DNA of 64,000 nucleotides, from assembly GCA_963677495.2 (NCBI GenBank), contig CAXXOU010000004.1, forward strand, positions 1,248,001 through 1,312,000, given 5' to 3'. Origin of the DNA: Candidatus Cloacimonadales bacterium (GTDB lineage: Bacteria; Cloacimonadota; Cloacimonadia; Cloacimonadales; JAFGVF01). Under the pieces are notes generated by a model. That model had not been told where the DNA came from and searched no databases. It saw only the letters and a list, made by a program, of their open reading frames with translations. Below, piece by piece: positions 32,765-59,270 of this stretch (the first letter of the stretch is position 1; each line of letters opens with the position of its first letter). Made by a program: the position numbers and the translations under genes.

Positions 32765-33756
32765 ATGGTGGGTACTCGGATTTGCTGTTGCAAATCCCTT
32801 TAGCTGTCATCCGGCTTGGAGTTGAGCAATCACGAGAAAAAGTAACATTACACCACTATGACTCCAACTTGCAAACTCGCTTTGACTCCTATGATGTAAG
32901 TTATAAAAAAAGTTTAAGTATTCATAATTTTTTTCTGGACAGAAAGATAGGATACTCATATTATCGGATTATATATGTGAGAATAATTAAATTGTGGGTG
33001 TAAACCCTCTGTTTAAGTATTCTCATCCGGAATTAATTATTTTGGGTGAGATTTTTCTATCTACACTTTCCAATATATTATTGGGACTCTCAAAATAATT
33101 CATTCCTATGATCTTTTATTGATTTGCTAATCACATTATTAGATTAGTATATATGTAATGAATTTTACAGCCCCAGATAAAGAATGGTGACTTTCATTGC
33201 CTGAAGTGTAACGTCCACTATGTTTCATACTGTGAAAGTCACTGTTTCAACTCTACACCAAATTAGTAAAACATCCCCCTACAAACTAAATTCATGATTC
33301 ATGTAAACAAAGTTACTTTATTGACATCGAACGATTCTCTAATATTTGGGACTAGTTACCCACCCTTACAAACATATCTTTAACTTAATATGTCCCAGTG
33401 CATTACATAACTTTAAAATGGTTCAATCCCCCGTAAACACATATAGAACAGCTATGAGATATAAAGAGAAAATACTCATACTTTTACTTTACACTATTCC
33501 ACTAACACATAGGTTTTGGCACAAAATATCTTATATTGATCGAAAAAAATCAGATTTGATTGAAAAGATAGTCGATGTTATTGAAACTAGCAAATCCTAT
33601 AAATATTATGTTAATTCTAATAATAATCGAAAGTGCATTGATTCTCAGTGGGAAAGCCCATTAAATCAAGGCGAACTGCATTGGAATGCATATTGCATAT
33701 GTCATAGACAATATAATGATAAAAGCAAAAACCCAAAAAAAGAGGTAACAAGAACT

Positions 33757-39788: not shown

Positions 39789-39796
39789 CTTTCACC

Positions 39797-42700
39797 TCAC
39801 ATTAATAGATTCTTATTGGTTAAAACTTGAACTACAGGCCTAAACAGATAAGGATGAATCTTGTAGTGACCCTCATTCTCCAGTATTATGCTCTTATCAC
39901 AAAGGCTGTTCATAATCAGAGTAGCATTATCTAGTTTCATATTGAATATCGTAGCTGTTTGCTTAATGGATAGCACTCCATGTTGCAAGAGTGCTGTTAA
40001 TACATAAAAACTCTCTTCAGATAATGCATTTAGGAAGGATGAGTCAACTTTCACATCTGCATTTACAATAAGATAATCCTTTTCAACCTTCTCAATTGCC
40101 TGTAATGATAATTGCATTGCCACCATTAAATTACCACCGGATGCAGTCGCCAACCTGGAAAAGAATTTCTTAGCAAGAAACTTCTGTTTATCTTTAGGTG
40201 TCTTACATTTCTTAAAAGCCTTCATCTCTTTATCAGCCAGTGAAGGACGATACTTAACTTGATAGCCACTAATTCGTTGACGCTTTGTTATAACATTCTC
40301 AATCTCCTCAGCGTTCAGGTTACCAAGGTCAATTACTCGTGTAAAATGGGGTTTTATCTCTGCAACTACCTGCAAGTAATCCCAGCTATACTTGTTTCCG
40401 GTTACAATCCAGAAAATCTTCTTCTGCGTTTGATTCATTAATAGTAAAAAGTCGTTTAGTAATCCAAACCCTCCAACAGTCCTTAAGTAAAGATTGTGGA
40501 AGTTTTCACATATCAACACAACAGGTTCTTGAAGTTTATTCAAATGCTTTGCTAGTTCCGATGTATTCGAAACGTTCTCAATCTCAAAAGCTTGTGAAAT
40601 AATACTTACTAGCTCACTTGTAGTAGTTATTGTTTTATCAATGGTGATATCAATAACCCGTTCTTTCTTAAGGATATTGTTTCTCATAAAATTCAATAAA
40701 CTAGTCTTACCACTTCCTGTTTCTCCGTAAATCATTACCTTCGCTGCATGAGAATCCTTAAAATTCCTATACTGCTTATTGATACTCTCAATCTCTTTTT
40801 TCCTCATAACAAACAGTCTATTATCAGCAACAGGCTTATTTTCGTAGAGCTTCTGAAAGATATGTGGCAACTTCTCGAACAGAAGTTCGCTCTCGCGGAG
40901 AATATGTGCAATATGCTCTGTTACATCCTCTGATACTGTCTCAATTCCGGCCATCTCTTTGATTTTATGATACCTGCCAAGTAACATGGAGAAGATTCGA
41001 AGGATAAACTTCCAGACAATCTGTACATATTTCGAAAGGAAGGTTAAACCTGAAAATAGTACTTTTCTAAATTGCTCCCTCGCCATAGCTTTAGTTATTC
41101 TGTTACGGATACTGCTAACAGTCTCAGGATCCAAGAATGAAGTTAAACTTGTTCCACTGACTTGTGCCAGCTTCTTCATACTCTCTGTAACCTCATTCAC
41201 AAGCGCTGTATCATTCTTTTCTGACTCATTTAGTAATGTTATCACGCGCTGAATAGCTTCTACAATCATGTTTATTGCTTTGAGTTGTTCCTCTTTATCA
41301 TCGCTTTTCTGAAGGTGCTCAATTGCCATTTCGGAGTTATAAACAAGAATGTTATCCAACTCTGATATATTTCTTATTGTTTTGTTTTGCTTCCGTGTGA
41401 TTCGCTCTTTAATTAGTTCTACATCTTTCTTCAGGTCTTGAAGAATCTCCTCTTTTATTATTCGTTTTAAAGCTAAGTTAGCAGTAACTGAGTTAGGTAC
41501 TTCCTGTGACAGGTCAAATTGCAAAAGTATAGAGTAGTTTTGCGGTAATGCTTCTACATCCTTGTTCAGCTCTTCCCAGAAATTCTGGATAGCAGTTAAC
41601 AAATCGTTATGTATGAGCTGCTGCAGTATATCTGTGATAAGCTCTTCTCTCAGTTTCTTTCTAAAAACTGAAGTCTGTGAGTTTAACTCACTAGCAGAGA
41701 TAGATGAATCCTTGAATTGATTTACACCCTGAGAGAACCCTTCGATTGCTTCTCGTATCGCACTATATTTCTTTAGTGCATTGCTTTCAAACCTGTTCTG
41801 TATCTGTTCTAGCAAAGTGTTCTTACTTCTTCTCAATACAGCTACGGTTTTACTCATATCCAAGTCTTTAAGCCATTCACCTTTCTCCCCTATGAAGATT
41901 TGAGTCCAAACTTTTAATGCCTTCTCTATCTGCTGATCTAGTAGTTTCTCTTTTATATGAAGTATTCTACCTGTATACAACTTGGATGGAAGCAGGAAAG
42001 TTCCAGCATTCATAAAGACAATCTCCAGGATTTCACTAATCCCCGGGAATATTTTATCCTTACTTTCGATTATTTTTGCTTCTGATGCCTTAAAATCAGC
42101 TAATTTAGCTTCAAACTCTGTTTTCATAATAGATAATAGATCTTTAAGTTTGTTTAGCTCCTCAATGCTCTCTTCATCATCTTTCAGTCGAAAGCATCTT
42201 ACTGTCAGGTTCATGATTTCATGATTTAGATGAATGAGATATGCGTAAACCCGAATAAACTCGGGTATCTCATCAAATAGGAAGTTCCTAATCGGGATGA
42301 ATAGAAAGAAGTGCAAAAGCTCATGTTGGTCAAATGAGCGTGAATTATTTGCCTTCTCCACAATCTGTTCCTCAGACCAAGCCCTATTCTTTAGTTTCAG
42401 CATATTCCTACGCGATTTCCAAAGGAATCTTTGATTACTCTTCCAGACTCTCACTTTAAACCTGTCAGTTGGTAACTTCTTGTAGAACTCGTAAGGTAGG
42501 GAATATTCCGCAGTTTGTGGAATTCTGGAAATCATATCACCATAGGATGCTTGCCAGACTCTTTCAAGCTCTTCATCTCTTAGATTATCGAAAAAATTGA
42601 ATCCGGTGTTTAAGAATTTTCGATTCAGACTCAAAATCATCTCAAGATCTGTTAACTCAATCTGCGAATCATCTTTTGGATAGGATTGGTAAAGTCTTTC

Positions 42701-42805
42701 TAAACTCTTAACGTTTCTACGAAGTAACTCAAGCCAAGCCTTAATCTGATTTGATATACCTGTGTTGCATTTCAGAAGCAGTTCATTGATTTGTATTGGA
42801 TTCAT
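39797..42805 (-). CDS. Large helical protein with a C-terminal P-loop (AAA+/STAND-like) ATPase
   Basis: Walker A GETGSGKT, degenerate Walker B VVLICENFH, SGGNL motif, probable C-terminal winged helix. Confidence 0.75.
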   Translation of the reverse strand: MNPIQINELLLKCNTGISNQIKAWLELLRRNVKSLERLYQSYPKDDSQIELTDLEMILSLNRKFLNTGFNFFDNLRDEELERVWQASYGDMISRIPQTAEYSLPYEFYKKLPTDRFKVRVWKSNQRFLWKSRRNMLKLKNRAWSEEQIVEKANNSRSFDQHELLHFFLFIPIRNFLFDEIPEFIRVYAYLIHLNHEIMNLTVRCFRLKDDEESIEELNKLKDLLSIMKTEFEAKLADFKASEAKIIESKDKIFPGISEILEIVFMNAGTFLLPSKLYTGRILHIKEKLLDQQIEKALKVWTQIFIGEKGEWLKDLDMSKTVAVLRRSKNTLLEQIQNRFESNALKKYSAIREAIEGFSQGVNQFKDSSISASELNSQTSVFRKKLREELITDILQQLIHNDLLTAIQNFWEELNKDVEALPQNYSILLQFDLSQEVPNSVTANLALKRIIKEEILQDLKKDVELIKERITRKQNKTIRNISELDNILVYNSEMAIEHLQKSDDKEEQLKAINMIVEAIQRVITLLNESEKNDTALVNEVTESMKKLAQVSGTSLTSFLDPETVSSIRNRITKAMAREQFRKVLFSGLTFLSKYVQIVWKFILRIFSMLLGRYHKIKEMAGIETVSEDVTEHIAHILRESELLFEKLPHIFQKLYENKPVADNRLFVMRKKEIESINKQYRNFKDSHAAKVMIYGETGSGKTSLLNFMRNNILKKERVIDITIDKTITTTSELVSIISQAFEIENVSNTSELAKHLNKLQEPVVLICENFHNLYLRTVGGFGLLNDFLLLMNQTQKKIFWIVTGNKYSWDYLQVVAEIKPHFTRVIDLGNLNAEEIENVITKRQRISGYQVKYRPSLADKEMKAFKKCKTPKDKQKFLAKKFFSRLATASGGNLMVAMQLSLQAIEKVEKDYLIVNADVKVDSSFLNALSEESFYVLTALLQHGVLSIKQTATIFNMKLDNATLIMNSLCDKSIILENEGHYKIHPYLFRPVVQVLTNKNLLM

Positions 42806-43116: not shown

Positions 43117-44373
43117 TTAGCTATATATTTTACCTTTTCGAATCACACTCTTTATACTATTCAAAGCTTCAATGCCCTGATAAGGATTAAACAGATTAGT
43201 TCGTTCTTTTAGCTCATAACCATGATCAATATCTACTAAAATGAGATCAGCAAAGTATCCGGATTGAATTAAACCCTTATTATGTGATTCTCCGATGATA
43301 CGAGCCGGATTGGTGGATAGTAATCTGCATAGATGCATTAAGTTGTTATCATGCAAATCATGAATAACATTAAAAGCAAGGGGGATAAGATAATCAATAC
43401 CGCATAAACCGTTGGGTATCTTCATCAGTTCAGATTTATACTGCGTTTTATCAGAGATGCTAAATGGGCAATGATCTGTAGAAAGTAACTCAATAGCTCC
43501 TAACTGCACTAAACATATTAGGTTCTGTCTGTTTATAGCATCTCCGAAATAGGGACTACACAGATAGTTGTACCCATCACTTTTTTTGTAAACTTCATCT
43601 GTAAAAATCAGATATTGAGGACAAGTCTCATAAGTTACATATTCTGATTCAATATAGCTAACTGCATTGGATAGATGGACGACATGAAAATGTACCTTAG
43701 TTCTTTCAGCAATCTCCACTATTCTGTGAACAGCATATCTCTCGGCTCTTTGAGAATAGCTTGAATCAATATCTTCAACTTTTACGAACTGCTTTTCCTG
43801 TAATATCTCATCGTCCTGACAATGCACCATGATTGTAATCTCTTTATTTGAGAAACGCTTAGCAAAAGATTCTATCTGTTCATATGTTGAGAAGAGTCCG
43901 TTCTTTTTGTAGGTAGTATAGAACTTGAACGTATTCCAACCATTATCAATCAGTTCTTCAATATCTCTTAAGTCATTAGGAGAGAATGAAGTCGGAGTTA
44001 AGTGCCAATGAATATCTGTAGTAATTATGGATTTATACTTATTAACAGTGTCCTCTATCGTTTGTTTCAAAGTCATTCCCTTTTTTTGGGTAATGAAGCT
44101 ACAAATAGTAGTAATACCTGATTGCAACGCTACTTTAGAACCTTTCTCATACGTATCTGCTATATAATATTCTCCAATCTTATCTTGCAGATGAACATGA
44201 AAGTCAATAAATCCGGGAAAGAGGTGTAAACCTTTTGCATCAATTACTTGCACATCTTCGGCTAAGATATCAGGTTTTACTTGTTCAATCATATCCCCTG
44301 ATATTAAAACATCAGCATCAGTAACATGATTCGGATTAACAACTTTAGCATTCTTGATCAGTAATTTAGACAT
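43117..44373 (-). CDS. Cyclic amidohydrolase (dihydropyrimidinase/hydantoinase/dihydroorotase-like)
   Basis: PGFIDFHVH, GITT, TFKFY Lys, VHCQD, VVHLS, ETCPQYL, STDHCPF, PNGLCG. Confidence 0.85.
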   Translation of the reverse strand: MSKLLIKNAKVVNPNHVTDADVLISGDMIEQVKPDILAEDVQVIDAKGLHLFPGFIDFHVHLQDKIGEYYIADTYEKGSKVALQSGITTICSFITQKKGMTLKQTIEDTVNKYKSIITTDIHWHLTPTSFSPNDLRDIEELIDNGWNTFKFYTTYKKNGLFSTYEQIESFAKRFSNKEITIMVHCQDDEILQEKQFVKVEDIDSSYSQRAERYAVHRIVEIAERTKVHFHVVHLSNAVSYIESEYVTYETCPQYLIFTDEVYKKSDGYNYLCSPYFGDAINRQNLICLVQLGAIELLSTDHCPFSISDKTQYKSELMKIPNGLCGIDYLIPLAFNVIHDLHDNNLMHLCRLLSTNPARIIGESHNKGLIQSGYFADLILVDIDHGYELKERTNLFNPYQGIEALNSIKSVIRKGKIYS

Positions 44374-45517
44374 TCTTTTTTGCACTCTCTATATCTTTTA
44401 GTCCATGTCCCGTAACTAATAGGACAACTTGCTCATCTGCTTTTACTACACCTTTAAGACTATCTAAAGCTGAATATGTAACTGCAGCTGCAGGTTCTGC
44501 GAAAATACCTGATTTCCTGAAAAGGGCTTTTTGAGCTTTAAGTATCTCCTCTTCAGGTACATTAACTGTTATACCATTGAATTGTTTTACATAATCTGAC
44601 GCCATATAGACGTTCGAAGGAGCCTTAACACTGATTGAATCAGCAATTGTATTAGGGTTTATTGCATCTCTATAAACCCCTGTTTCAATACAATTATTGA
44701 TAGCATCAGAGGTAGCTGTTTGCACAGAAACCAGTCTTGGTAGTTTGTTAATAAAACCAACCGTATATAAATCCTCAAAGCCTTTTGCGACTCCGGAAAG
44801 AATAACACCATCACCTACAGGAATTACAATATAATCGGGGACTTTGAATCCATTCTGCTCATAAATTTCAAAAGCTACTGTTTTCTTTCCCTCAATAGTT
44901 AGAGGATGATATGCAGTGTTTCTGTTAAGCGTTCCATTAGTAATTGTATCATCAATTGATACTTTAAAAGCATCATCATAAGTTCCTTCTACTTCAATAA
45001 CTTCAGCACCGCTAAGTTTCATCTGTATCAGCTTTGCTTCAGGAGCAGAAGCAGGCACATATATCTTTGCTTTTATATCAGTTGAAGCACAGATTGTAGC
45101 TAAGGCAGATGCTGCATTTCCGGTCGAAGCACAAACAACCTCTTTCCTATTCAGTCTGTTTGCTTCCGCGACAACTAAAAATGAAGCTCTGTCCTTTAAA
45201 GAACCGCTTGGATTGCAACCATCAAACTTAATAGATACATTGAAGCCAAACTCATCACTTAACTTGTCAGATCTGAAGAAAGGAGTATTACCTATACTTA
45301 TTGGTGGGAAATACTTGCTATTCACAGGCGAAAAGAGATTCCAGTCAGGTTGTTTGAAATTAAACTCACGCTTAATCTTCTCGTAATCAAGCACAGTCTT
45401 CAAGACCCCTTTTAATGGAGTACCGGGAGTCCAATCTTTCCCACACACATCACATAAATAATGAATCTCTTCAGTTGAGTACTTCTTCCCGCACTCTATG
45501 CACTCATAGTACTGCAT
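44366..45517 (-). CDS. PLP fold-type II enzyme (threonine-synthase-like)
   Basis: N-terminal CxxC..CxxC, GNTP, NPSGSLKDR, ASTGNA, EGKKT, PVGDG, TGHGLKD. Confidence 0.85.
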   Translation of the reverse strand: MQYYECIECGKKYSTEEIHYLCDVCGKDWTPGTPLKGVLKTVLDYEKIKREFNFKQPDWNLFSPVNSKYFPPISIGNTPFFRSDKLSDEFGFNVSIKFDGCNPSGSLKDRASFLVVAEANRLNRKEVVCASTGNAASALATICASTDIKAKIYVPASAPEAKLIQMKLSGAEVIEVEGTYDDAFKVSIDDTITNGTLNRNTAYHPLTIEGKKTVAFEIYEQNGFKVPDYIVIPVGDGVILSGVAKGFEDLYTVGFINKLPRLVSVQTATSDAINNCIETGVYRDAINPNTIADSISVKAPSNVYMASDYVKQFNGITVNVPEEEILKAQKALFRKSGIFAEPAAAVTYSALDSLKGVVKADEQVVLLVTGHGLKDIESAKKNV

Positions 45518-45518
45518 T

Positions 45519-46721
45519 CTACTTACCGTTCAATTGTGCAACCAATCCGGCATAGAAAGCTGTAGCATCGCTTAAATCAGATACTCTTATTCTTTCATTC
45601 GGTGCATGAGCTTGATCTTCGTCACCGGGACCGAATCCCATACATTTAATTTCTGGATGTTTCCCCATTATGAAAACACAGTTTGTTGAGAAAGTCCATT
45701 TATCGATAAGTGGTTTCTTGTTAAATATATTAATAAAAGCTGATTCTGCTGTTTTAAGGTAGGGTGAATCCTTTTCTAAAACCCAGGTTGGATAATATTT
45801 TTCAACAGGATATACTTTTCCAGTATAGGCTTTTTCTTCGTAAGTAAGAACCTTAATGTTTGCTTCCACACCTGCTTTTTCTGCACATTCATTCAACTGC
45901 TTTACAGCAAGTTCCTTCGTTTCTCCATCGGTCAGTCTTCTATCAACTTGGAGATATGCATAATCAGCTACAGCACATTGAGAAGGGCTATCGGATTTGA
46001 ATACTGAAGTTGTAATTGTCCCTTTTCCAAGAAAATCATCATGCATGAGATTATCGTTCAGTTTTTCAATCTCTAATGCTATGCGAGCCATTTTGTAGAT
46101 AGCATTGTCCCCTCTTTCCGGAGCTGAACCATGACAAGAAATCCCTTTTACTTCAGCTGATATTTCCATTCTACCGCGTTGTCCACGATAGATATTAAGG
46201 GAAGTCGGTTCAGTGCTGACAACAAGCTCAGGTCTTATATTATCTTCCTTAATCATGTGTTCCCAGGCAATTCCATCGCAATCCTCTTCCATCACAGTCC
46301 CTGTAAAGAGGATAGTAAACTCATTATTCAAATCTAATTCTTTAATCAGTTTGGCAGCATAAACCATAGATGCTAAACCGCCTTTTTGATCAGAAGTACC
46401 TCTTCCCCACAGATACCCGTCAGCAATGTGTCCGCTAAACGGTTCAAAATCCCAATTCTCTCTGTTGCCGGGATATACTGTATCGATATGAGCATCGAAA
46501 GCTATGAGTCTTTTACCACTACCTATTCTGCCAATAATAGAGCCTAAAGCATCGATTTTAATCTCATCAAATTCAAGCTTTTCCATTTCTTTCTTGATTA
46601 CTTCTACTACATCTTTCTCTTTCATCGAAAATGAAGGAGTCTGAACTAAACGGGAAAGAAAGTCTGCTATCTCGGGTTCAATTTCTTTTGCTCTATCTAA
46701 AATCTTCTTATACATTTCCAT
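45519..46721 (-). CDS. ygeY: YgeY-family M20 amidohydrolase
   Basis: FDAHIDTV, GRGTSDQKGG, TVMEEDCDG, TEPT, HGSAPERGDNAIYKM, WTFSTN, GFGPG..AHAPNE. Confidence 0.9.
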   Translation of the reverse strand: MEMYKKILDRAKEIEPEIADFLSRLVQTPSFSMKEKDVVEVIKKEMEKLEFDEIKIDALGSIIGRIGSGKRLIAFDAHIDTVYPGNRENWDFEPFSGHIADGYLWGRGTSDQKGGLASMVYAAKLIKELDLNNEFTILFTGTVMEEDCDGIAWEHMIKEDNIRPELVVSTEPTSLNIYRGQRGRMEISAEVKGISCHGSAPERGDNAIYKMARIALEIEKLNDNLMHDDFLGKGTITTSVFKSDSPSQCAVADYAYLQVDRRLTDGETKELAVKQLNECAEKAGVEANIKVLTYEEKAYTGKVYPVEKYYPTWVLEKDSPYLKTAESAFINIFNKKPLIDKWTFSTNCVFIMGKHPEIKCMGFGPGDEDQAHAPNERIRVSDLSDATAFYAGLVAQLNGK

Positions 46722-46730
46722 TAATATCTC

Positions 46731-48059
46731 CTAAAATCTCTTCCATAATTCTTTTGATAACGCTCTTGACCTTTTATTTATCTCAACTTCATCTAAATCA
46801 AGAGTAAGTAACTTGTTTTCCATAAGGATTCTACCATTACAGATGGTCGTATCAACCGGGGTAGCACTTATCCCATATATTAAATGTCCAAGGGCAGTTG
46901 AACTGCTTAGTTCGGTTGGTGCAAGGTAGTCACATAGTATAACATCAGCTTTATAGCCTTTATTGATTTGACCTGTTTGCAGGCCATTAAACAGACGATT
47001 AACTATCAGGGCATTGTTCTTGTACAAAGTATTTGCAACTTGCATAAATGCAGCGGTAGGATTCTCTTGTTTAAGATGTTGAGCCCACATTGCTACTCGC
47101 ACTTCCTGAGCCATATCAACAGTCATAGCATCAGTACCTAATCCGGTTAGAATACCATGATTATTGAGCTTCACAAGATCAGCTATACCAACAGCATTAT
47201 TCATGTTTGATTGAGGGTTATGCACGATAATCGTATCTGTACTTCCCAGTATATCATACTCTTCTTCATTAAGATGTACACCATGGGCACAGATTGTTTT
47301 TTGTCCGAGTACCCCTGCTTTATGAAGTCTTTCAACGACACGCAAACCTGTCATTTTAATAGTTTCCTGCTGGTCACTTTCAGCTTCTGCACAATGAATA
47401 TGAAAGCCTGTGTCAAAGCCATTATTGGCATCAACAGCCTTTTGCATCGTCTTATCTGAGATTGTGAATGATGCATGCATTCCGAACATACCTGAGAGCA
47501 TATCACTATTCCGTTTTTTAGTATGCTTTATGAACTCAATATTCTCCTGAATACCTTCTTCCATTATCTTAGCACCATCCCTGTCGGAAAGCTCATAACA
47601 TAAGCTTCCTCTCAATCCCGTTTGGACAAAACCCTTCTCTATCTCGGAAAGTGAGCCTAACACAGCATAAGGGCTTGCATGATGGTCTATAAGAGTAGTG
47701 CAACCTTTTTTGATTGCTTCTATTTGCATGATTAATGCACTGTAATGTACATCTTCAAGCATCAGCTTTCTATCCAGACGCCACCATAGATTTTTAAGAA
47801 CTTCACTGAAGTCAGCTGATGGTTCAGCTTTCCCGAGACCTCGAACCATAGTGGAATAGAAATGCATATGAGCATTTATGTATCCCGGCATGATAACTTT
47901 TCCGGTTGCATCTATTTCTTTATCGAAAGAGCCATCTGCTGTACCTTTAGGATAGAATCCTTCTATCAATTCATCTTGAATCACCAGATCATGGTTGTAT
48001 AAAACATCCTGCTTAGTATTCAGGGTTATAATAATCCCATTCTTTATTCTAATTCGCAT
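46731..48059 (-). CDS. ssnA: SsnA-family aminohydrolase
   Basis: INAHMHFYS, LWWRLD, IDHHASP, YELSDRDG, GMHASFT, HNPQSNMNNAVG, GLGTD. Confidence 0.9.
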   Translation of the reverse strand: MRIRIKNGIIITLNTKQDVLYNHDLVIQDELIEGFYPKGTADGSFDKEIDATGKVIMPGYINAHMHFYSTMVRGLGKAEPSADFSEVLKNLWWRLDRKLMLEDVHYSALIMQIEAIKKGCTTLIDHHASPYAVLGSLSEIEKGFVQTGLRGSLCYELSDRDGAKIMEEGIQENIEFIKHTKKRNSDMLSGMFGMHASFTISDKTMQKAVDANNGFDTGFHIHCAEAESDQQETIKMTGLRVVERLHKAGVLGQKTICAHGVHLNEEEYDILGSTDTIIVHNPQSNMNNAVGIADLVKLNNHGILTGLGTDAMTVDMAQEVRVAMWAQHLKQENPTAAFMQVANTLYKNNALIVNRLFNGLQTGQINKGYKADVILCDYLAPTELSSSTALGHLIYGISATPVDTTICNGRILMENKLLTLDLDEVEINKRSRALSKELWKRF

Positions 48060-48068
48060 AATAAATCC

Positions 48069-50531
48069 TTATTCCTTCAAAGCTTCCGATTCTTCTTGAG
48101 TGCGCTCACGCATAAACATAGCTCCGGTAAAGCACTTTTGCACACAAATACTACATCCTATACACTTTTCAGGATTTGTTTCTGGAATACCCTCTTTATT
48201 CAATTCAATTGCCATATATGGACAACGAGCACAGTTTCCACACGATAAACATAACTCTGCATTTACATCTGAAATCTTCTTAACAGAGTTCAGGTCCAAG
48301 AAATCAGTAACAGGATTAGGTAATGCAACCCCTCGAAGTTCAGCAACACTTTTGAGCCCTTTCTCCTGCAAATAATATGATAATCCTTCATGCAAATCAG
48401 TTATATAATTAACACCATACTTAGTTGGTGCTGTACAGAACTGAACAGTTCCCGCACCCAAAGCTAAGAAATCTGCAGCAGCTTTGTAGTTCATCGGCCC
48501 ACCATTACCGGAGATATATAAACCTTCATTTGATGCATTAGCGAGTGTAAGATTAGAGATATTTCTAACCCCTTCCCCACTCAAACCAACGATAATACCT
48601 TCGTCCCACTCAGCTTTGCCAGTATCTCTAAATTCAAGAGATGGGAACGAATTAGCTAAAGTAACTCCTGCTTTTTTATTCGGATATTTATCCATTACGG
48701 CTTTTATGGCTCTAAGAATTGGCACGACAGATGTAACCGCGCCGGTGAGTTTAAATAGTTTAGGAACCGCAGGATTAGATACTTCCATGATCCACTCTAC
48801 AATCTTGCCTGTAAGCTTTGCGTTCTGAGAAACAATATCACCTTCAGTTCCATCTCCACCTTGAGGGCATGATAGCGAATACTCTACTCCATGCACTCCT
48901 GCAGCTTCAAGTTTCTTCGTATTTGATTGCCAAACTGCTTTATCCTCTTCATCATTACCAGTCACAGGTCCACCCGTAGATACCATTATCAGTCTATCAG
49001 GGTATTCCTCAACCAGTTGGGCTGCTTCCTTTGCTGCTCTTTCTAAAGGGTGACCTGAAACATTATCGCAATTTGCATAAGTATCATTTGTTATTTTAAA
49101 CATATACTCACCGGGGATATGGATATCAAGACCATCAAAGACAGTCTTCATTACTCCGCCTGCCCATCCGGCATCTAGGGCTTTCTTCATCTGCTCATAA
49201 CCATCAGATGGTGGGGCTGCTGAAAGAATAAAAGGAGATTGTAAAGTCTTACCAAAGAAATCACAGCTAATATCAATCGGGTGCTTAATAGTCCCATGTA
49301 ACTCAATATCTGAATGTAAATCATTCTCAGTCTTTGATATCACTATATTATTAATTGATGCATCAACTCGTTTTGCACAATTTTTACCTGATGCAACAGC
49401 TTCAACAACAGTGGATGCTCCATTCTTGTAATCACCTGCAAAGAACACATCTTTATGTTCTTCAAAATTGGTTTCTTGTCTTGAGCCTATCGCCCAGACT
49501 ATGTAATCATAGTTATTTATAAAATGCTCTGAACCTTTTATCGCTTTAATTCCCTGCAATGAAAACATTTCGCTTTCCAGTTTTACTCTTTCACCTGCTA
49601 CACTGAAATGCGTTGAGTTTGTTTTAGTGATAGCTGTAACACGCGTACGATAAATGGTATTAACATTGTTTTCTCTCAGTTCTTCTCGCTCTTTTTCTGA
49701 TAGTAGCATCTCAGAAGTGTTCTCAAGCATTATCATATCAACTAAAGCAGCTTCAGCTTTCTGGGCTGTCACTGCACAATCAAGAGCAATAGCTCCACCA
49801 CCAATCACGGCTATTGATTTACCGGAAAGGTCATCATCCAGCTTTAAAAACTTATCCCACCCGATTCCATATTCTTTACCGGGAACAGGTAAACTCATCA
49901 CATCCCAAAGACCTGTTGCTATAATCACTGCTTCATAGTCAGCTCTTAACTTATTTAAATCAGTAATCTCAGTATCGGGGAAGAACTGAATCCTATCCTC
50001 ATTCATAAAGTATTCGATATCCTCTCTCAGGATTGAATTATCAAGTCTATGGTCAGGTATATAAAGTATTGCCCCACCTATTTCTATCTCTCTATCATAA
50101 AGATCGATATTGTATCCCAATTGAGCTAACACTACTGTTGCACCCCATCCTGCCGGACCTGCACCCAGGATTGCTATAGTTTTATTGTTCCACTCAGGAA
50201 GCCTAAATTCAGGCATCGCATCCAATTCTCTTGCTTTTGCCATTATTGTAGCTTGGCAGTCAGGTATGTTAATAGCTCCATCAAAGAGTTTATGGGAACA
50301 TGCATCCATACAATGCTTATCAGGGCAGACATTCCCGCATACTGAACCAAGTGGATTCATAGAGAGTATCTTACTTGCAGCTCTTCTAAAACCACTCTTC
50401 TCCCCCATTTTTACTGCCATAAGAAAGTCTGCCGGACTACATCCGACCGGACAGGCAGTCATACAGGGTTTCTCTTCACAATAAGCACATCTTTCTATCT
50501 CGCTCTTTAATTGTGCATCAGTTAGTCGCAT
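48069..50531 (-). CDS. Single-chain dihydropyrimidine-dehydrogenase-like oxidoreductase (PreT-PreA-type fusion)
   Basis: CAYCEEKPCMTACP Fe-S, GAGPAG FAD, GGGAIALD NAD(P), FMN barrel GWAGGVMKT and YSLSCPQGG, C-terminal 2x[4Fe-4S]. Confidence 0.85.
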   Translation of the reverse strand: MRLTDAQLKSEIERCAYCEEKPCMTACPVGCSPADFLMAVKMGEKSGFRRAASKILSMNPLGSVCGNVCPDKHCMDACSHKLFDGAINIPDCQATIMAKARELDAMPEFRLPEWNNKTIAILGAGPAGWGATVVLAQLGYNIDLYDREIEIGGAILYIPDHRLDNSILREDIEYFMNEDRIQFFPDTEITDLNKLRADYEAVIIATGLWDVMSLPVPGKEYGIGWDKFLKLDDDLSGKSIAVIGGGAIALDCAVTAQKAEAALVDMIMLENTSEMLLSEKEREELRENNVNTIYRTRVTAITKTNSTHFSVAGERVKLESEMFSLQGIKAIKGSEHFINNYDYIVWAIGSRQETNFEEHKDVFFAGDYKNGASTVVEAVASGKNCAKRVDASINNIVISKTENDLHSDIELHGTIKHPIDISCDFFGKTLQSPFILSAAPPSDGYEQMKKALDAGWAGGVMKTVFDGLDIHIPGEYMFKITNDTYANCDNVSGHPLERAAKEAAQLVEEYPDRLIMVSTGGPVTGNDEEDKAVWQSNTKKLEAAGVHGVEYSLSCPQGGDGTEGDIVSQNAKLTGKIVEWIMEVSNPAVPKLFKLTGAVTSVVPILRAIKAVMDKYPNKKAGVTLANSFPSLEFRDTGKAEWDEGIIVGLSGEGVRNISNLTLANASNEGLYISGNGGPMNYKAAADFLALGAGTVQFCTAPTKYGVNYITDLHEGLSYYLQEKGLKSVAELRGVALPNPVTDFLDLNSVKKISDVNAELCLSCGNCARCPYMAIELNKEGIPETNPEKCIGCSICVQKCFTGAMFMRERTQEESEALKE

Positions 50532-52816
50532 CTCTTCTCCTCTTTTTTAGAAATAGCCATTAATACAGCTTCCGGAGTTGCCGGAAACTTCAAATTGTCA
50601 TTATTCGGATTACTCCTTTTCAAGACATCAAAAAGAGCTAACCACACTGATAGTCCATATATTAGCGGAGGTTCACCCACAGCTTTACTACCCATAACAC
50701 TTGCATGTTCACGCTCTACTGTTACCATTTCTACATTAAAATCATCAGGGATATCCATAATGCATGGAATCTTATAGGTTGAAGGATTTACTGCTAAATA
50801 GCGGCCTTTCCCGTCATAAGGCAGTTCCTCCATTGTACACAGTCCGAACCCTTGAGTAAAAGCTCCATAGATTTGCCCTTTATCAACTTCAGTGTTTATT
50901 GGCGAGGAGCTATCATGCACAATTGCAACCTTTTTGAGAGAGTATTCACCTGTATATAAATCAACTTCTACTACTGATAAAGCAGCCCCATAAACGAAGT
51001 AAGCAAAAGGTCTACCTTTTCCTTTATCATGGTCAAACTTAATTCCGGGTGTGTGATAAAAGCCATGAGCACCTAGATCAACACAATTGAAGTAGGCATA
51101 ATGAACCATTTCTGCAAATTGTACGACTGTAGTACCTGACACGAAACAATCATCTTCGATTCTAATCTCATCTACCCGATTAAGGCCTTTCTCATCCCAA
51201 TAGTTCCCTGCTATCTTCATTAATCTTTCTTTAAGTATCAAAGCAGCATTTCGGGCAGCATACCCATTAATATCACTACCGGTAGATGCAGCTGTTGGAG
51301 AGGCATTACCTACTCGTTTAGTATTAGCTGATTCGATTCTAATTCTATCCATACCAACACCAAGCGTCTCCGCAACAACCTGACAGACTTTAGTGTTAAC
51401 CTGTTGTCCCATCTCGATTCCACCATGTGATACAGAGATGGTTCCATCAGCATAAACCCAGATTAAGGAGGAACCCTGATTAAGAAATCCGGCAGTAAAA
51501 GATATACCAAACTTACCCGGAACAACTCCTATTCCCTGTTTAGTGTGAGAATGCTCTGAGTTGAAATTATCAACTTCCTCTTTGAGTTTATTGTACTGAA
51601 CATTATCCTTCAACACTTCCAGCATTTCACCACCCACAGGTTCAAACACTTCCATTCCATAAGGTGTGGTCTGATTCTCTTTGTAGCAGTTTATGCGTCT
51701 AATCTCTAAAGCATCTATTCCCAGTTTTTGTGCTGCGATATCAAGAGCATACTCGATACTCATGATACCCTGAGGTGCACCAAAACCTCTAAATGCTGTG
51801 TTTGGAGGTAGATTTGTCCTGCATGGATAACCAACAAACGATGAGTTCGGGATATAATAAGCATGGTCTGAGTGATACAACCCTCTTTCCAGTATTGCTA
51901 TTGATAGGTCTGTGTAAGCACCACCATTTGAATAGAGAATATTCTCAAAAGCTGTTATAGTTCCATCATTCTTAATACCAAGCTTAAACTTATTTTTAAA
52001 AGGGTGTCTTTTCCCCGTAGATTGCATATCAGTTGGTCTTCTCAATTGTAGTAGTACAGGCTTCTTTGATACATATGCTCCTAGAGCTGACAATGCTCCC
52101 CAAAGTGTGGCTTGTGATTCTTTTCCGCCAAATGCTCCACCTAACCTTTTCACATCAACAGTAATCTGATTAGATGTTAAACCTAAGACCTTAGCAGTTA
52201 CTTCCTGAGTCTCGGAAGTTGATTGTGTTGATGAATACAGAGTAAAACTTCCATTATCTTCAGGAATACTCAAACAGCGTTGGGTCTCTAAGTAGAAATG
52301 CTCCTGAGCCCCGGTTTCAATTGTCTTTTCAATAATCAGATCAGCTTCTTCGAAACCTTTTAACAGGTCGCCCCTCTTAATCATTCTGGGGTTTATATAG
52401 TATTCACTCGCTTCAACTGCATCATCTATTGATAGAATAGGTTTCAGTTCCTTAATCTCAAGTTTCACTTTACTTGCTGCGTATTCAGCGGTCCAGGCAT
52501 CATTTGCTAAAACAATGGCAATCGGTTGTCCATAATACTTAACTATCTTTTCTGGCAATAAAGGCTGATTATCCCCATTCCCATGGGCAATGTTATTCTC
52601 TCCCGGAATATCTTTAGCTGTAACTACTCTAATATTCCCTTCAATCTGCTTCAATTCGGAAGTATCAATTGATACAATCTCCCCATGAGCAATCTCTGAA
52701 GTGACAACATGGGCATAAAGCATTCCTTGCGGTATATTCTCCTCCCCTATGAACCTCGAAGTACCACAGACATGGAGTTTCCCGCTTAAATGTTTACTTT
52801 CTTTAACTTTATTCAT
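50522..52816 (-). CDS. xdhB: Xanthine dehydrogenase molybdopterin-binding subunit
   Basis: QEHFYLE, RLGGAFGGKESQ, TAFRGFGAPQG, FGISFT, SPTAASTGSD, SKAVGEPP. Confidence 0.92.
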   Translation of the reverse strand: MNKVKESKHLSGKLHVCGTSRFIGEENIPQGMLYAHVVTSEIAHGEIVSIDTSELKQIEGNIRVVTAKDIPGENNIAHGNGDNQPLLPEKIVKYYGQPIAIVLANDAWTAEYAASKVKLEIKELKPILSIDDAVEASEYYINPRMIKRGDLLKGFEEADLIIEKTIETGAQEHFYLETQRCLSIPEDNGSFTLYSSTQSTSETQEVTAKVLGLTSNQITVDVKRLGGAFGGKESQATLWGALSALGAYVSKKPVLLQLRRPTDMQSTGKRHPFKNKFKLGIKNDGTITAFENILYSNGGAYTDLSIAILERGLYHSDHAYYIPNSSFVGYPCRTNLPPNTAFRGFGAPQGIMSIEYALDIAAQKLGIDALEIRRINCYKENQTTPYGMEVFEPVGGEMLEVLKDNVQYNKLKEEVDNFNSEHSHTKQGIGVVPGKFGISFTAGFLNQGSSLIWVYADGTISVSHGGIEMGQQVNTKVCQVVAETLGVGMDRIRIESANTKRVGNASPTAASTGSDINGYAARNAALILKERLMKIAGNYWDEKGLNRVDEIRIEDDCFVSGTTVVQFAEMVHYAYFNCVDLGAHGFYHTPGIKFDHDKGKGRPFAYFVYGAALSVVEVDLYTGEYSLKKVAIVHDSSSPINTEVDKGQIYGAFTQGFGLCTMEELPYDGKGRYLAVNPSTYKIPCIMDIPDDFNVEMVTVEREHASVMGSKAVGEPPLIYGLSVWLALFDVLKRSNPNNDNLKFPATPEAVLMAISKKEEKRCD

Positions 52817-54273
52817 ATACGATTCCTAACTCTTTCAAAATGTTTCTTAATATGGTTCTTAATCAGTGTTGATCGATATTCGTCACTTCCCCTAACATCA
52901 CTGATAGGAGTGAACTCTTCAGCTGCAATCTCGGCAGCCTTCTCAATCACCTCATCTGTCAATGGCTTGAAGTTAAGGTACTCCATTGTTTTGTTTGCTA
53001 AGGCAGGATGCTCTTTCACGCCACCAAATGCTATTGTTACTCCTAAGATATCTCCCTCATCTATATACACAGACATGGCTGAGTTAACAGAAGATATATC
53101 CACGTTCTTTCGTTTGGAGCTTTTGATAAATCCGGAGTATGTATAGTTCTTTTTCGGCACTACAATAGCCTCAATATACTCACAATCATCTAAATCTATA
53201 TCTTTATATCCCTTATAGAACTCGCTCAGAGTAATGAACCGATCACCACATCCACCATCAAGTAGAAGCTTCGCTTCCAGTCCTAATAGCATAGATGCAC
53301 CATCAGCTACAGGACTTGCATTGCTGATGTTACCACCTAATGTGGCAACATTGCGGATTTGAGTGGAGGACATTATCTTGATTGTATCAACTAAGGCAGG
53401 GAAATACTTCTGTATAACTGCATTGTTCATTATGTCAGTAAGAGTTGCAGTTGAGCCTATCTTCACAACTCCGTCTAATTCATCTATATAGGTAAGCTCT
53501 ATCACCTCTGAAATATCTAAATACTCTTTACTGAATTCACGTCGTATGTTCGATTCGACATTCAAATCTGTGGCTCCGGCGATAAACTTATATCCACCTC
53601 TGCTAGTTAGCATATATAGTTCATCAAGATCCTTTGGCATTAAGTAACAATCAACCGGATAGTGATCTTCAACCTGCATCGGGAAGTTTTTTATCTCTTT
53701 CGGGATTGCCTCTAAATCTTTAATAATAGCTTCTTTGGATTCAGGCAGGATATCATTCTTATTGATCAGCTTGTTATGCATACTTTTGATCAGCTCTTCC
53801 CCGGCTTTGACAATATGTTTGTATCCTGTACATCTGCAAAGATTACCCTCTAAAGCAGTCTTAAAATCCGCCAAGGATGGGTTCCCATTTTCCATAAGCA
53901 AAGCGAATACACTCATAACAATACCCGGCGTGCAGAAGCCGCACTGGGTTCCATGATTGTCAAACAACACTTTCTGGATGAAGTGCATTTTATCAGGTGT
54001 ACCCAATCCTTCAGTTGTCACTACATGCTTGCCATGAAGCTTTGTCGCAGGATAGATACATGATGTAATTGATTTATAACGTAGCTTTGATTCCCAAATC
54101 TCTCCGATTGCGATAGTACATGCCCCACAATCACCTTCCGAGCAGACCTCTTTCACACTCTGCATACCAAATCTATGCAACAACTCCAACGCTGTCTCAG
54201 CCGGCTTACATTCTGTCTGCACCAACCACCCGTTCAATCTGAACTCAATTCTGTTAACCCTTATAGTTTTCAT
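52813..54273 (-). CDS. xdhA: Xanthine dehydrogenase small subunit (two [2Fe-2S] plus FAD)
   Basis: CSEGDCGACT, QCGFCTPG, GNLCRCTGY, AGATD, QIRNVATLGGN..ASPVAD, PISDVRGS. Confidence 0.92.
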   Translation of the reverse strand: MKTIRVNRIEFRLNGWLVQTECKPAETALELLHRFGMQSVKEVCSEGDCGACTIAIGEIWESKLRYKSITSCIYPATKLHGKHVVTTEGLGTPDKMHFIQKVLFDNHGTQCGFCTPGIVMSVFALLMENGNPSLADFKTALEGNLCRCTGYKHIVKAGEELIKSMHNKLINKNDILPESKEAIIKDLEAIPKEIKNFPMQVEDHYPVDCYLMPKDLDELYMLTSRGGYKFIAGATDLNVESNIRREFSKEYLDISEVIELTYIDELDGVVKIGSTATLTDIMNNAVIQKYFPALVDTIKIMSSTQIRNVATLGGNISNASPVADGASMLLGLEAKLLLDGGCGDRFITLSEFYKGYKDIDLDDCEYIEAIVVPKKNYTYSGFIKSSKRKNVDISSVNSAMSVYIDEGDILGVTIAFGGVKEHPALANKTMEYLNFKPLTDEVIEKAAEIAAEEFTPISDVRGSDEYRSTLIKNHIKKHFERVRNRI

Positions 54274-54572
54274 AATCTCTACCTCGTTTGATAGCTTAAG
54301 TTATCTGTTTTTGACCAACTGCCAATTATCAGGATACTTTTTTAGTTGTAAAGTAGAAAGTGGGGATTAACAATTAAAGAGCTATATTGTTACTCAGCTA
54401 GCGTCCATAGGAACTTGTGAGTACGACGCTAAGCGAAAGATATCAAGCAATTCTTCAGTAAGTTGTTCAATTCCTGTCATATATCCAATCATAGGACTAA
54501 TATTATTTAATGCATGTCAATACTAGTTTCAGAGCACGATTTGCTTCCCGGTTATAGCTCTATCGAGCTATG

Positions 54573-54642
54573 TGCAAGTGGGGACACTCGCACTACAAAT
54601 GTACTGCGACTCTCCTGAGTTGCTGTGCCGACAAAGTCGGCA
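54573..54642. repeat. REP-like palindrome doublet
   Basis: TGCAAGTGGGGACACTCGCACTAC (CTAC end) followed by GTACTGCGACTCTCCTGAGTTGC and TGCCGACAAAGTCGGCA. Confidence 0.55.
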
Positions 54643-54757
54643 ATTTCCACTGACCGAGACTTTGAAATCAATTACTCATGGAGAGGAAATCCTTATCAGT
54701 CGTATGGACTCGTGCTTTTTTGATTGTTTGTAGAATGCAAAATGTTAGATGAACAAT

Positions 54758-54985
54758 CATCTGTACCTTCGTAATGGTCGTAGACCTTCCGAATGGTACA
54801 CTTCGAAGGGACTGACTCGGACTTTCGTTGCGATGATAATGTGACGCGAGAACGGATCAGGTTTAGAGAACCGGAATTAGCAAACCAAGAACATATTCGA
54901 CCCACTTTGGGGTCGTGGATTCTAATGGGTCATTCAACCATGCATTTCATGCATGGCTACTCATATTTAATCACTCTGTGATTAT
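54758..54985. repeat. About 230-bp multi-hairpin repeat, copy 1
   Basis: Highly similar to 56344-56577 in the same orientation. Confidence 0.88.
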
Positions 54986-55077
54986 TCCTGCTTCAGTAGA
55001 TATATTCAGTACCTTTTGCAATGACTTACGATAATTCCGGTCACCTGTGTGAGTTTAAGATCATGGGGAACCGACTG

Positions 55078-55200
55078 AAAGGAGCTTGCTTGAGAAACGA
55101 AAGCAACTCATTTTCAAAGGAGCTTGCTTGAGAAACGAAAGCAACTCATTTTCAAAGGAGTTTGCTTGAGAAACGAAAGCAACTCATTTTCAAAGGAGCT
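55078..55200. repeat. Tandem repeat, 38-bp unit x3 plus a partial unit
   Basis: AAAGGAGCTTGCTTGAGAAACGAAAGCAACTCATTTTC repeated with no spacers. Confidence 0.95.
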
Positions 55201-55437
55201 CGTGAGACAGTTGTCGAACAACTTCTTGGAATTATACTTCGAAGTACGCAATTCCCAGAACTCCCGATGGTCGTAATAGTGACCGCTACTGTGCGATCCT
55301 ATGGTTAGATTATACTAAAATACTGACCCTGAAGGGGTAGTAGATTCTCGGTACGGGAAAATCGACCAAGGGTGGTTCGATTTACATCACAAGAGCACCA
55401 TTGAGAAGGTCTTAAGACCATTCTCAAGGTAGTTATT

Positions 55438-56250: not shown

Positions 56251-56343
56251 CTTCAGCCTCCTGTGTCCTTTAATCTACATTTCTATTATCAACCGACTAT
56301 TTATAATCCTTCTATTTCACTTGTAAAGAAAAAAAACGATGGA

Positions 56344-56577
56344 CATCTGTACCTTCGTAATGGTCGCAGACCTTCCGAATGGTGCATTTCGGAGGGACTA
56401 ACCCGGACTTTCGTTGCGATGATAATGTGACGCGAGAACGAAAGTAGCTTAGAGAACCGGAATTAGCGAATCAAGAACATATTCGACCCACTTTGGGGTC
56501 GTGGATTCTAATAGGGACATACGTCCATGCATTTCATACAGTACATGGCTACTCACATTTTATCCCGCTGGGATAAT
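56344..56577. repeat. About 230-bp multi-hairpin repeat, copy 2
   Basis: Direct repeat of 54758-54985. Confidence 0.88.
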
Positions 56578-56647
56578 GACTACTAACAAAATCGAATCTA
56601 TTTTGATAAACTATTAACATAGATCTTACAACATAATGGGTATTTAC

Positions 56648-56820
56648 TAACTCTGAAAGAGTTACATATGAGTAGCTCCGAATGCAATTCTGGGTAATGT
56701 ATTCTCCAAAAATTACACAACCCCGAATGGGTTTGAATATTGACGGTATACCACGAACCACACGAAAAACACTAAATAATTCTGTCTCTTTTCGTGCTAT
56801 TTGTGCCTTTTGTGGTTTGA
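56648..56820. repeat. Further REP-like palindromes
   Basis: AACTCTGAAAGAGTT..ATGAGTAGC..CGAATGCAATTC..AACCCCGAATGGGTT (inverted relative of 56480-56577); ACCACGAACCACACGAAA..TTCGTGCTATTTGTGCCTTTTGTGGT. Confidence 0.55.
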
Positions 56821-56963
56821 TTATTTGCACTCAAACTAATCCTTCAATCAAAACATAGTCATCCCACTGTTTTCCCACTGTGCACGCACTGTGCACCCAG
56901 TGAAACAGTGTGTCAATGGCATTTTAAATTGGTACAGTTTGGCATTTAAAAATGGTACAGTCT

Positions 56964-57695
56964 TCATTTTTGAAAATTCCTTAGTCTAAAGCTGTCTCCG
57001 AGCATTGTAATTGGTTGTGAGTGATGGAGTAATCTATCAAGAATAGCAGTTGCTATCACATTGTCGTTAAAAATAGCTCCCCATTCATTAAACAACCTAT
57101 TCGATGTTATGATTACTGATCTAAATTCGTATAAGAGATGGATGAGTCTAAAGAACAGATTAGCTGCCTTTGTCTGGAGAGGAAGATACCCCATCTCATC
57201 TATAACTATCAGATCATTCTTGGCTATATTGCTTAGATATTTATCTATGTTGTTATCTGCTTCAGCTAGTACAAGTTCTTCGATAAGGTTGTTCAGATTA
57301 TAAAACACCACCTTATATCCTGCCTTTATTGCTTCATAACTGAGTGCTGTTGCAACATGAGTCTTACCTACTCCCGGAGGTCCCATTAAAATTATATTCC
57401 TCCTCTGCTCCAGCCAGACAAAGTTCTTCCACTCCTTTACTTGTCTTTTGGTTATTACTTGTTGATAAGCATAGTCGAACTCATCAAAGGTCTTTATTAC
57501 CGGGATGTGAGCCTGTTTAAGTCTTCTGTTGATATTGGTTTGATTCCTTCCTGAGTTCTCTTTTTCAAATAGATAATGTACGAACTCCAGATAAGTCATA
57601 TTCTGTTTCTCTGCTTCTAAAACTGCACTTTCAAGAGTATTCAAAATATGAGTACAACGAGCCCTTTTGATGTATGTTTTAGTTATCTCTATCAT
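56964..57695 (-). CDS. istB: IS21 helper ATPase IstB
   Basis: GPPGVGKT, LIVIDEMGY, ITSN, AILDRLLHH, GDSFRL. Confidence 0.96.
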   Translation of the reverse strand: MIEITKTYIKRARCTHILNTLESAVLEAEKQNMTYLEFVHYLFEKENSGRNQTNINRRLKQAHIPVIKTFDEFDYAYQQVITKRQVKEWKNFVWLEQRRNIILMGPPGVGKTHVATALSYEAIKAGYKVVFYNLNNLIEELVLAEADNNIDKYLSNIAKNDLIVIDEMGYLPLQTKAANLFFRLIHLLYEFRSVIITSNRLFNEWGAIFNDNVIATAILDRLLHHSQPITMLGDSFRLRNFQK

Positions 57696-57696
57696 C

Positions 57697-59172: not shown

Positions 59173-59270
59173 ACCTACTCCAAACTGTCTTGAAGTAGTC
59201 ATTTTTAAAGGTTGGCAGTTTTGTACCACTTTTCACTGCCATCGTGTACCATTTCTCACTGCCATTGACA

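Follow-up and report, generated by a model that had tools for sequence, protein, structure and literature searches.

The DNA stretch analysed here (the window) is 64,000 nucleotides (nt) long and corresponds to C4:1248001-1312000 of a 3.4 Mb, 99.5% complete genome of a Candidatus Cloacimonadales bacterium (G000). On its minus strand, at positions 43117-54273, it carries seven intact open reading frames (ORFs) in the order xdhA, xdhB, a PreT-PreA fusion, ssnA, ygeY, a pyridoxal phosphate (PLP) enzyme resembling threonine synthase (TS) and a cyclic amidohydrolase (Table 1). The gaps between them are, in the same order, -4, -10, +9, +9, +1 and -20 nt, which bears out the claim of an earlier note on this DNA that the seven genes are tightly coupled. 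That note read the operon as a variant of the reductive purine pathway, a reading that the family scores uphold. SsnA reaches 521 and 490 bits against NCBIfam cut-offs of 444 and 455.5, YgeY reaches 553 and 536 bits against a cut-off of 321, and a YgeW above its cut-off is encoded at a second locus of the genome; a carbamate kinase (46% identity to the E. coli query) and GuaD (37%) are present elsewhere. The HyuA-like cyclic amidohydrolase is divergent and falls under every hydantoinase cut-off, yet it keeps all the metal ligands.

Table 1. Genes of the window operon (window positions) and of the second locus (genome positions); aa, amino acids; Mo, molybdenum; scores in bits
Feature	Position	Strand	Basis
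xdhA, 2Fe-2S and FAD subunit of two-subunit (Rhodobacter-type) xanthine dehydrogenase, 486 aa	52813..54273	-	Pfam Fer2_2, FAD_binding_5, CO_deh_flav_C; TIGR02963 389, under cut-off of 467
xdhB, molybdopterin subunit, 764 aa; likely hypoxanthine/xanthine to urate	50522..52816	-	TIGR02965 795, cut-off 849.5; xanthine oxidoreductase motifs
PreT-PreA fusion, 820 aa (FeS/FAD/NAD(P)H half and FMN barrel/ferredoxin half); likely 2,8-dioxopurine reductase replacing YgfK	48069..50531	-	best PDB match pig dihydropyrimidine dehydrogenase; co-occurrence with SsnA
ssnA amidohydrolase, 442 aa; likely opener of six-membered ring	46731..48059	-	above cut-off on NF005540 and TIGR03314; 36% to E. coli SsnA
ygeY M20 amidohydrolase, 400 aa; likely removes second ureido group	45519..46721	-	above cut-off on NF009555 and TIGR03526; 52% to E. 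coli YgeY
threonine-synthase-fold PLP enzyme, 383 aa; candidate for the terminal lyase alongside the CysK-like enzyme	44366..45517	-	TIGR00260 176, cut-off 167; phosphohomoserine phosphate site lost
cyclic amidohydrolase (HyuA-like), 422 aa, GTG start 44385 (alternative ATG 44373); likely hydantoin ring opener	43117..44385	-	best model D-hydantoinase 223, cut-off 393; 26% to E. coli HyuA
second locus: Mo subunit, 2Fe-2S subunit, ygeW, 486-aa CysK-like PLP enzyme, mocA-like gene, xdhC	G000:C4:873835-880506 (= L082:7836-14507)	+	genome search, ORF reading

The earlier note had taken ygeW, ygfK and ygeX to be missing and functionally replaced. We searched the G000 genome for the missing pathway genes with the E. 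coli cluster proteins as queries. For ygeW the claim holds for the window operon only, since a canonical YgeW (67% identity to E. coli YgeW, 671 bits against a cut-off of 453) is encoded at G000:C4:876538-877725, in a second locus about 410 kb away, and its replacement can be rejected. For the other two genes the absence extends to the whole genome: the search for YgfK returned only partial glutamate-synthase-like matches, and the best match to YgeX scored 24 bits against a cut-off of 532, with no phmmer match at 1e-4. In the second locus, the mocA-like gene has an obscure start codon, as no ATG, GTG or TTG precedes its conserved N-terminal motif.

The window operon comprises the first seven genes of a 13-gene set that is split in this genus, and it lacks ygeW because of this genus-level rearrangement. 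In G001/G328, G353, G345 and G389 they form one uninterrupted run with the other half; among the genomes viewed, the split was found only in G000 and its congener G357. We surveyed the best 80 of 137 genome loci that hold the fusion, 67 of which extend far enough to test whether ssnA is adjacent. The order that the earlier note supposed to be conserved is indeed found in relatives: the run fusion-ssnA-ygeY-TS-like gene occurs in 19 of the 80 loci, many of which stop at contig ends, and of these 19, 16 continue as far as the second Mo subunit and 15 as far as ygeW. ssnA adjoins the fusion in 34 of the 67 testable loci, and in several relatives a canonical xanthine dehydrogenase and guaD stand at the head of the cluster. 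The gene order is not due to chance. Counts across related genomes, here and below, are not independent of one another.

Several variants of the cluster were seen in this survey. The run ygeY-TS-like gene-Mo subunit has no hydantoinase gene in between in L033, L048, L086, L089 and L093. A second cluster type (L032, L044 and L050, from G021, G024 and G025) contains two SsnA-family genes above the cut-off, a Mo enzyme with an FAD subunit and a 333-aa carbamoyltransferase. The viewed loci of this type have no HyuA-like gene, and their second SsnA may take the place of HyuA. In three loci from genomes of one family (L161, L162 and L169), a predicted exported protein of 281-285 aa, a candidate for uptake through the outer membrane, lies between ygeY and the TS-like gene. 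In a survey of the phylum of G046, ygeY was present in 30 of 264 genomes, and 20 of the regions were viewed.

The PreT-PreA fusion and the two PLP enzymes

The fusion is PreT-like over residues 11-389 and PreA-like over residues 420-809, with 29% identity in each case, as the earlier note had suggested in proposing that such a protein stands in for YgfK. In one chain it has the domain set shared by pig dihydropyrimidine dehydrogenase (DPD; 1gt8) and E. coli PreTA, arranged in the order of pig DPD (FeS-FAD-NAD(P)H-FMN-ferredoxin), and it keeps the catalytic Cys. It differs from both in its low overall identity, in its substrate pocket and in its tie to SsnA. Its score is 202 bits against a cut-off of 335 on NF006183 and 122 against 835 on the YgfK model TIGR03315, and no match to the YgfK N-terminal domain was found. 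The Asn of the sequences ELNLSCP in pig and ECNFSCP in E. coli is replaced by Ser in 73 of 73 aligned members of the fusion family, and NxE becomes NxD. We take this pocket Asn, which directly precedes SCP-motif residues and is Asn668 in pig DPD, to bind uracil, and the roomier pocket left by a Ser would suit a bicyclic substrate.

The distribution of the fusion points in the same direction. In a sample of 121 genomes from its own phylum, each at least 90% complete, its FMN half was found in 64 and SsnA in 63, the latter by a strong call at 410 bits, a threshold that we placed where the scores leave a gap (the curated cut-off is passed by 52 genomes). Both proteins are present in 62 genomes, only one of them in 3 and neither in 56. 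We also picked 50 fusion-bearing genomes from the 80 loci; in 39 of them a gene of the cluster lies next to the fusion, and in 11 none does. SsnA is present in 48 of the 50. The association persists where the two genes are unlinked. It is likely, judging from these patterns, that the fusion replaces YgfK as the 2,8-dioxopurine reductase.

A PydA-type substitute for YgfK has been published before, and what is new here is confined to the fused NAD(P)H module. According to passages of Li et al. (2025; PMC12507026), YgfK is replaced in C. difficile by UacX, a PydA homologue without an FAD domain. The fusion scores 28.2 against a cut-off of 27 on PF01180 and has ssnA next to it, which is the criterion given there for a UacX-type reductase. 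Compared by description, the C. difficile variant shares with the present cluster the DHO_dh/PreA-type FMN barrel (PF01180) in the place of YgfK and a Mo enzyme without an FAD subunit. However, UacX lacks the FAD/NAD(P)H domain that is fused here, and C. difficile has UacY and YgeX and needs selD and yqeB, whereas the present cluster keeps YgeW. Many proteins of 361-374 aa in the set P0121-P0240 align with the FMN/ferredoxin half of the fusion alone (about 60-68%). They may include stand-alone forms like UacX as well as fragments cut at contig ends.

The TS-like enzyme keeps the PLP-lysine motif SxKDR and just passes the TS model (Table 1). Relative to T. thermophilus TS it carries Ala for Thr88, Thr for Arg160 and Asp for Asn188; the three original residues are present in all four solved threonine synthases that were aligned (1uim, 2zsj, 6cgq and 2d1f), and the three changes are common to 119 of 119 database homologues of the TS-like enzyme. 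Thr88, Arg160 and Asn188 presumably bind the substrate phosphate, a role on which our literature search found no paper. Furthermore, G000 has no homoserine dehydrogenase, and its best match to ThrB has an E-value of 0.01. On these grounds a role of the gene in threonine biosynthesis was rejected, and the description in the earlier note of an enzyme that resembles TS without being one is correct. A single-sequence fold of the protein reached a pLDDT of 35, too low for use.

The 486-aa CysK-like enzyme of the second locus folds at a pLDDT of 87, and its nearest relatives are found in the CysK/CBS group (8srt and 6c2h, 25-29% identity). The two cluster enzymes have in common with CysK/CBS and threonine synthases the fold-type II PLP fold with its Schiff-base Lys; unlike CysK, the 486-aa enzyme has long terminal extensions and scores far under the CysK cut-offs. 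Among the 50 fusion-bearing genomes, ygeX occurs in one, the CysK-like enzyme in 46 and the TS-like clade in 46 (47 matches, one of just 35% identity). In a sample of 80 metagenome loci around the CysK-like gene, the TS-like gene is present in 47 (adjacent in 30), ygeX in none and a full-length YgfK in 14, so the replacements of YgfK and YgeX are independent of each other. The only ygeX-rich lineage compared was E. coli.

These counts suggest that the TS-like and CysK-like enzymes likely replace YgeX as a pair. The deamination of diaminopropionate, with which the earlier note had the pathway end, has two candidates in them, of which the CysK-like enzyme lies outside the window, and its assignment to the TS-like enzyme alone is uncertain. 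That the TS-like enzyme performs it falls, in our judgement, just short of an even chance, and it is a guess that the CysK-like enzyme handles the other enantiomer or an albizziin-type intermediate. Li et al., in the passages cited above, counted any PF00291 neighbour as YgeX, and under such a criterion a substitution by these two enzymes would stay hidden. In G000 they are the only fold-type II PLP enzymes over the Pfam cut-off, which, together with the lack of a homoserine dehydrogenase, suggests that the organism takes up threonine and cysteine.

Molybdenum enzymes, their cofactor and selenium

The earlier note had assigned the xanthine dehydrogenase to the two-subunit type, and this assignment stands: XdhA and XdhB score best on TIGR02963 and TIGR02965, though under the cut-offs. 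The best PDB matches of XdhB are mammalian xanthine oxidoreductase (XOR; E-value 1e-158) and R. capsulatus XdhB, and it keeps the motifs QEHF, GGKES, ERG, FRGFG, ISFT, PTAAS and GEPP, that is, the full canonical xanthine-oxidising site. Both the architecture of XdhA and XdhB and the XOR active-site residues are those of a two-subunit, sulfur-type xanthine dehydrogenase. The Mo/2Fe-2S enzyme of the second locus has no FAD subunit. Its Mo subunit contains the motifs GGKDD, SLGAEG and TTVAS with the Arg and the catalytic Glu of purine hydroxylases, and it is present in five of five genomes checked, at 58-84% identity. It would be the better candidate for urate reduction, to which its position in the cluster assigns it; this is the weakest step of the pathway.

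Genes for the synthesis of the molybdenum cofactor (Moco) were searched for in five genomes (G000, G328, G312, G353 and G015). None of the five has MoaC, a MoaA over the cut-off, or MoeA/Mog. In G000, no match was found for MoaB, MoaC, MoaD, MoaE, Mog, MoeA or ModA, and MoaA has only a weak radical-SAM match; the Wtp and Tup transporters lay outside this search. Three PF00994 matches were rejected as MoeA/Mog since they are CinA, and the modB-like matches were rejected as a molybdate transporter, lying within a run of ORFs that we take to be a phosphate-type ABC set with PhoU. Between G000 and G357, the 12 cluster genes tested differ at 5-21% of non-synonymous and at 64-87% of synonymous sites. 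All 12 are hence under purifying selection, and the orphan Mo proteins are being maintained. The Moco-binding motifs, MocA and XdhC are retained as well; as MocA and XdhC are kept without a Mo insertase, import of finished Mo-molybdopterin is predicted.

Orphan molybdoproteins have been noted before. Passages of Peng et al. (2018; PMC6147048) count 292 bacteria that lack nitrogenase and carry molybdoenzymes in the absence of a Moco pathway, with the cause left open, and Table S1 of that study lists Ca. Cloacimonas acidaminovorans without Moco synthesis or Mo transporters and with 3 XO-family proteins. The genomes analysed here share with theirs XO-family genes in the absence of Moco synthesis. 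Those passages give the orphans no function or cofactor source, whereas here they belong to a defined pathway with MocA, XdhC and purifying selection. The persistence of the cluster without recognisable molybdopterin synthesis, seen in five of five genomes, is new.

The published pathway also has a selenium requirement. Liu et al. (10.1101/2025.04.24.650524) found YqeBC and SelD in all of their cluster-bearing strains and showed DOPDH to be inactive without selD. C. difficile requires selD and yqeB but not yqeC, and urate reduction as published depends on both selD and yqeB (Liu et al. 2025; Johnstone and Self 2024). Selenium genes, whose presence elsewhere in the genome the earlier note had left to a search, were found only in part: G000 has selD, and neither yqeB nor yqeC was found in it. 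Among the 50 fusion-bearing genomes, whose completeness is not given, the same 6 genomes, all outside G001-G039, carry both yqeB and yqeC, and 19 have selD. In the 63 SsnA-positive genomes of the own-phylum sample, yqeB is found in none and selD in 17, and selD is found in none of 44 genomes of family f3. Neither yqeB nor selD was found in G328 (one contig, 99%) or in the single-contig G312. The second Mo enzyme, if it is a urate reductase, would work without the known selenium trait, and the persistence of the cluster without the trait that published strains need is new. A literature search that left most subscription journals outside its coverage found no paper linking ssnA, ygeY and threonine synthase, none on ssnA with selenium-independent use of uric acid, and none on uptake by organisms that have molybdoenzymes and lack Moco synthesis.

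The proposed pathway and its alternatives

From the observed gene content, order and residues, with every substrate assigned from sequence, we consider it probable that these genes encode a variant of 2,8-dioxopurine purine fermentation that runs without selenium and likely on imported Moco. XdhAB would oxidise hypoxanthine and xanthine to urate, with guanine fed in by GuaD, and the FAD-less Mo/2Fe-2S enzyme, matured by MocA and XdhC and carrying a sulfido instead of a seleno ligand, would reduce urate to 2,8-dioxopurine. The fusion would then reduce the ring of 2,8-dioxopurine with NAD(P)H, and SsnA followed by the HyuA-like enzyme would open both rings to give 2,3-diureidopropionate. YgeW and carbamate kinase would generate ATP, YgeY would yield 2,3-diaminopropionate, and the TS-like and CysK-like enzymes, jointly in the role of YgeX, would produce pyruvate and ammonia. 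With hypoxanthine as the starting substrate, the release and the consumption of electrons could balance at four each.

The 2,8-dioxopurine pathway of E. coli and C. sporogenes, as far as it is given in the two sources (10.1101/2025.04.24.650524; PMC12507026), comprises XdhD-YgfM/XdhAC, YgfK, SsnA, HyuA, YgeW, YqeA, YgeY and YgeX. It shares with the present one SsnA, YgeY, YgeW, carbamate kinase, a HyuA-like enzyme, MocA and two Mo-hydroxylases. Unlike it, the present pathway has no YgfK, YgeX, YqeB, YqeC or NCS2 permease, uses the fusion and two other PLP enzymes instead, has a two-subunit Rhodobacter-type xanthine dehydrogenase and no recognisable molybdopterin synthesis, and occurs in environmental lineages.

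A number of observations weigh against the proposed pathway. The fusion lacks an adjacent ssnA in 33 of the 67 testable loci, and the HyuA-like gene is divergent and, in L033 and L048, absent from the run. G040 has ygeX in addition to both PLP enzymes. Of 48 more distant copies of the TS-like enzyme, 11 have Asn in place of its Asp, and an Arg that is new and invariant (R199) lies ahead of the motif and could still bind an anion. The selD gene of G000, which has an in-frame TGA, also counts here. Moreover, identity between the second Mo subunit and E. coli XdhD is no more than 26%, Glu606 of XdhD falls in an unalignable loop, and the best PDB match of the subunit is 4-hydroxybenzoyl-CoA reductase. 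Finally, no NCS2 purine/urate permease was found in G000, and the substrates may therefore stem from nucleosides or turnover and not from imported urate.

The last of these observations, together with the distance from XdhD, the enzyme's own active-site motifs and the lack of selD and yqeB in most of these genomes, would also fit the entry of a related heterocycle into the same ring chemistry. This could be an oxidised or methylated purine from nucleic-acid turnover, or 2,8-dioxopurine formed by another route, and the second Mo enzyme would then be no urate reductase. We regard this as unlikely, for the enzyme keeps the purine-hydroxylase Arg and catalytic Glu, resembles clostridial DOPDH in having no FAD subunit and lies inside the cluster in 16 of the 19 extended loci, and the xanthine dehydrogenase and guaD at the cluster head in several relatives fit a feed from purines to urate. 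A reductive pyrimidine pathway, in which the fusion, the cyclic amidohydrolase and the M20 enzyme would take uracil or thymine to beta-alanine and the purine genes would merely be clustered with them, is quite improbable. The exchange of the pocket Asn for Ser and of NxE for NxD speaks against it, as does the nearly one-to-one tracking of SsnA by the fusion even where they are unlinked (62 of 65 genomes with either, and 48 of 50), and G000 has no YgfK that could serve SsnA otherwise. What it can draw on is that the closest solved relative of the fusion is dihydropyrimidine dehydrogenase, that the amidohydrolase is closest, by family model, to dihydropyrimidinase and that the fusion stands alone in many Cloacimonas-type genomes.

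It is also conceivable that the purine pathway is right but that the cofactor comes from unrecognised enzymes or the Mo proteins are free of Moco, with the CysK-like enzyme supplying cofactor sulfur rather than catalysing the final step of catabolism. For such orphan proteins, passages of Peng et al. (2018; PMC6147048) raise new components of the biosynthesis or forms independent of Mo. In this cluster type the CysK-like gene lies directly next to mocA, and the fold of its product is that of the CysK/CBS group, which includes sulfide producers. However, mocA is a far rarer companion of this gene in the 80 metagenome loci than the TS-like gene, ygeW, ygeY and carbamate kinase are (7 against 47), the enzyme is present in six of six yqeB-positive genomes, and the Moco-binding motifs, MocA and XdhC are retained. 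We give this version very little credence.

A wider claim, which we hold possible but somewhat on the doubtful side, is that much of Cloacimonadota and some Ignavibacteria carry out selenium-free 2,8-dioxopurine fermentation with both Mo enzymes running on intact Mo-molybdopterin scavenged from neighbours. If true, this would mean that bacteria can be auxotrophic for Moco, that a urate reductase of the sulfur type exists and that the diaminopropionate step has a new form with two enzymes. Anaerobic purine fermentation would then reach about half of a phylum that is common in digesters and sediments, the orphan molybdoproteins of Peng et al. (2018) would have a job, and molybdenum cofactor sharing among bacteria could be tested directly. 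The published accounts present the pathway as dependent on selenium and enriched in the gut, and their screens count YgfK and YgeX among the markers or take any PF00291 protein as YgeX. The labels of large families now called threonine synthase, cysteine synthase and dihydropyrimidine dehydrogenase would be corrected. Cofactor burden is named as a limit for urate-lowering probiotics in passages of Li et al. (PMC12507026), for which a selenium-free version would provide simpler parts.

Surroundings of the operon

No Rfam match was found in the window operon or the second locus, and promoter-like sites were at chance level (41 against 38 expected). Upstream of xdhA, window positions 54500-55430 and 56300-56960 form a patchwork of repeats, in which a 50-nt bin can have as many as about 80 BLAST matches in the genome, and a threefold tandem unit lies among these intergenic repeats near 55080-55200. 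A transposase and helper ATPase pair, which we take to resemble IS21, follows at 56964-59229 on the minus strand; the identical ATPase start recurs at G000:C3 near 196.6 kb. Downstream of the operon and outside the conserved cluster, at 38775-42805 on the minus strand, there is a gene for an MscS channel and one for a 1002-aa protein with a C-terminal AAA/STAND-like ATPase. Large secreted proteins are encoded at window positions 33346-38703 on the plus strand and, near the second locus, at L082:3910-7398; they presumably resemble gingipain-type (C25) proteases, with a C-terminal sorting domain that we take to be common in G000.

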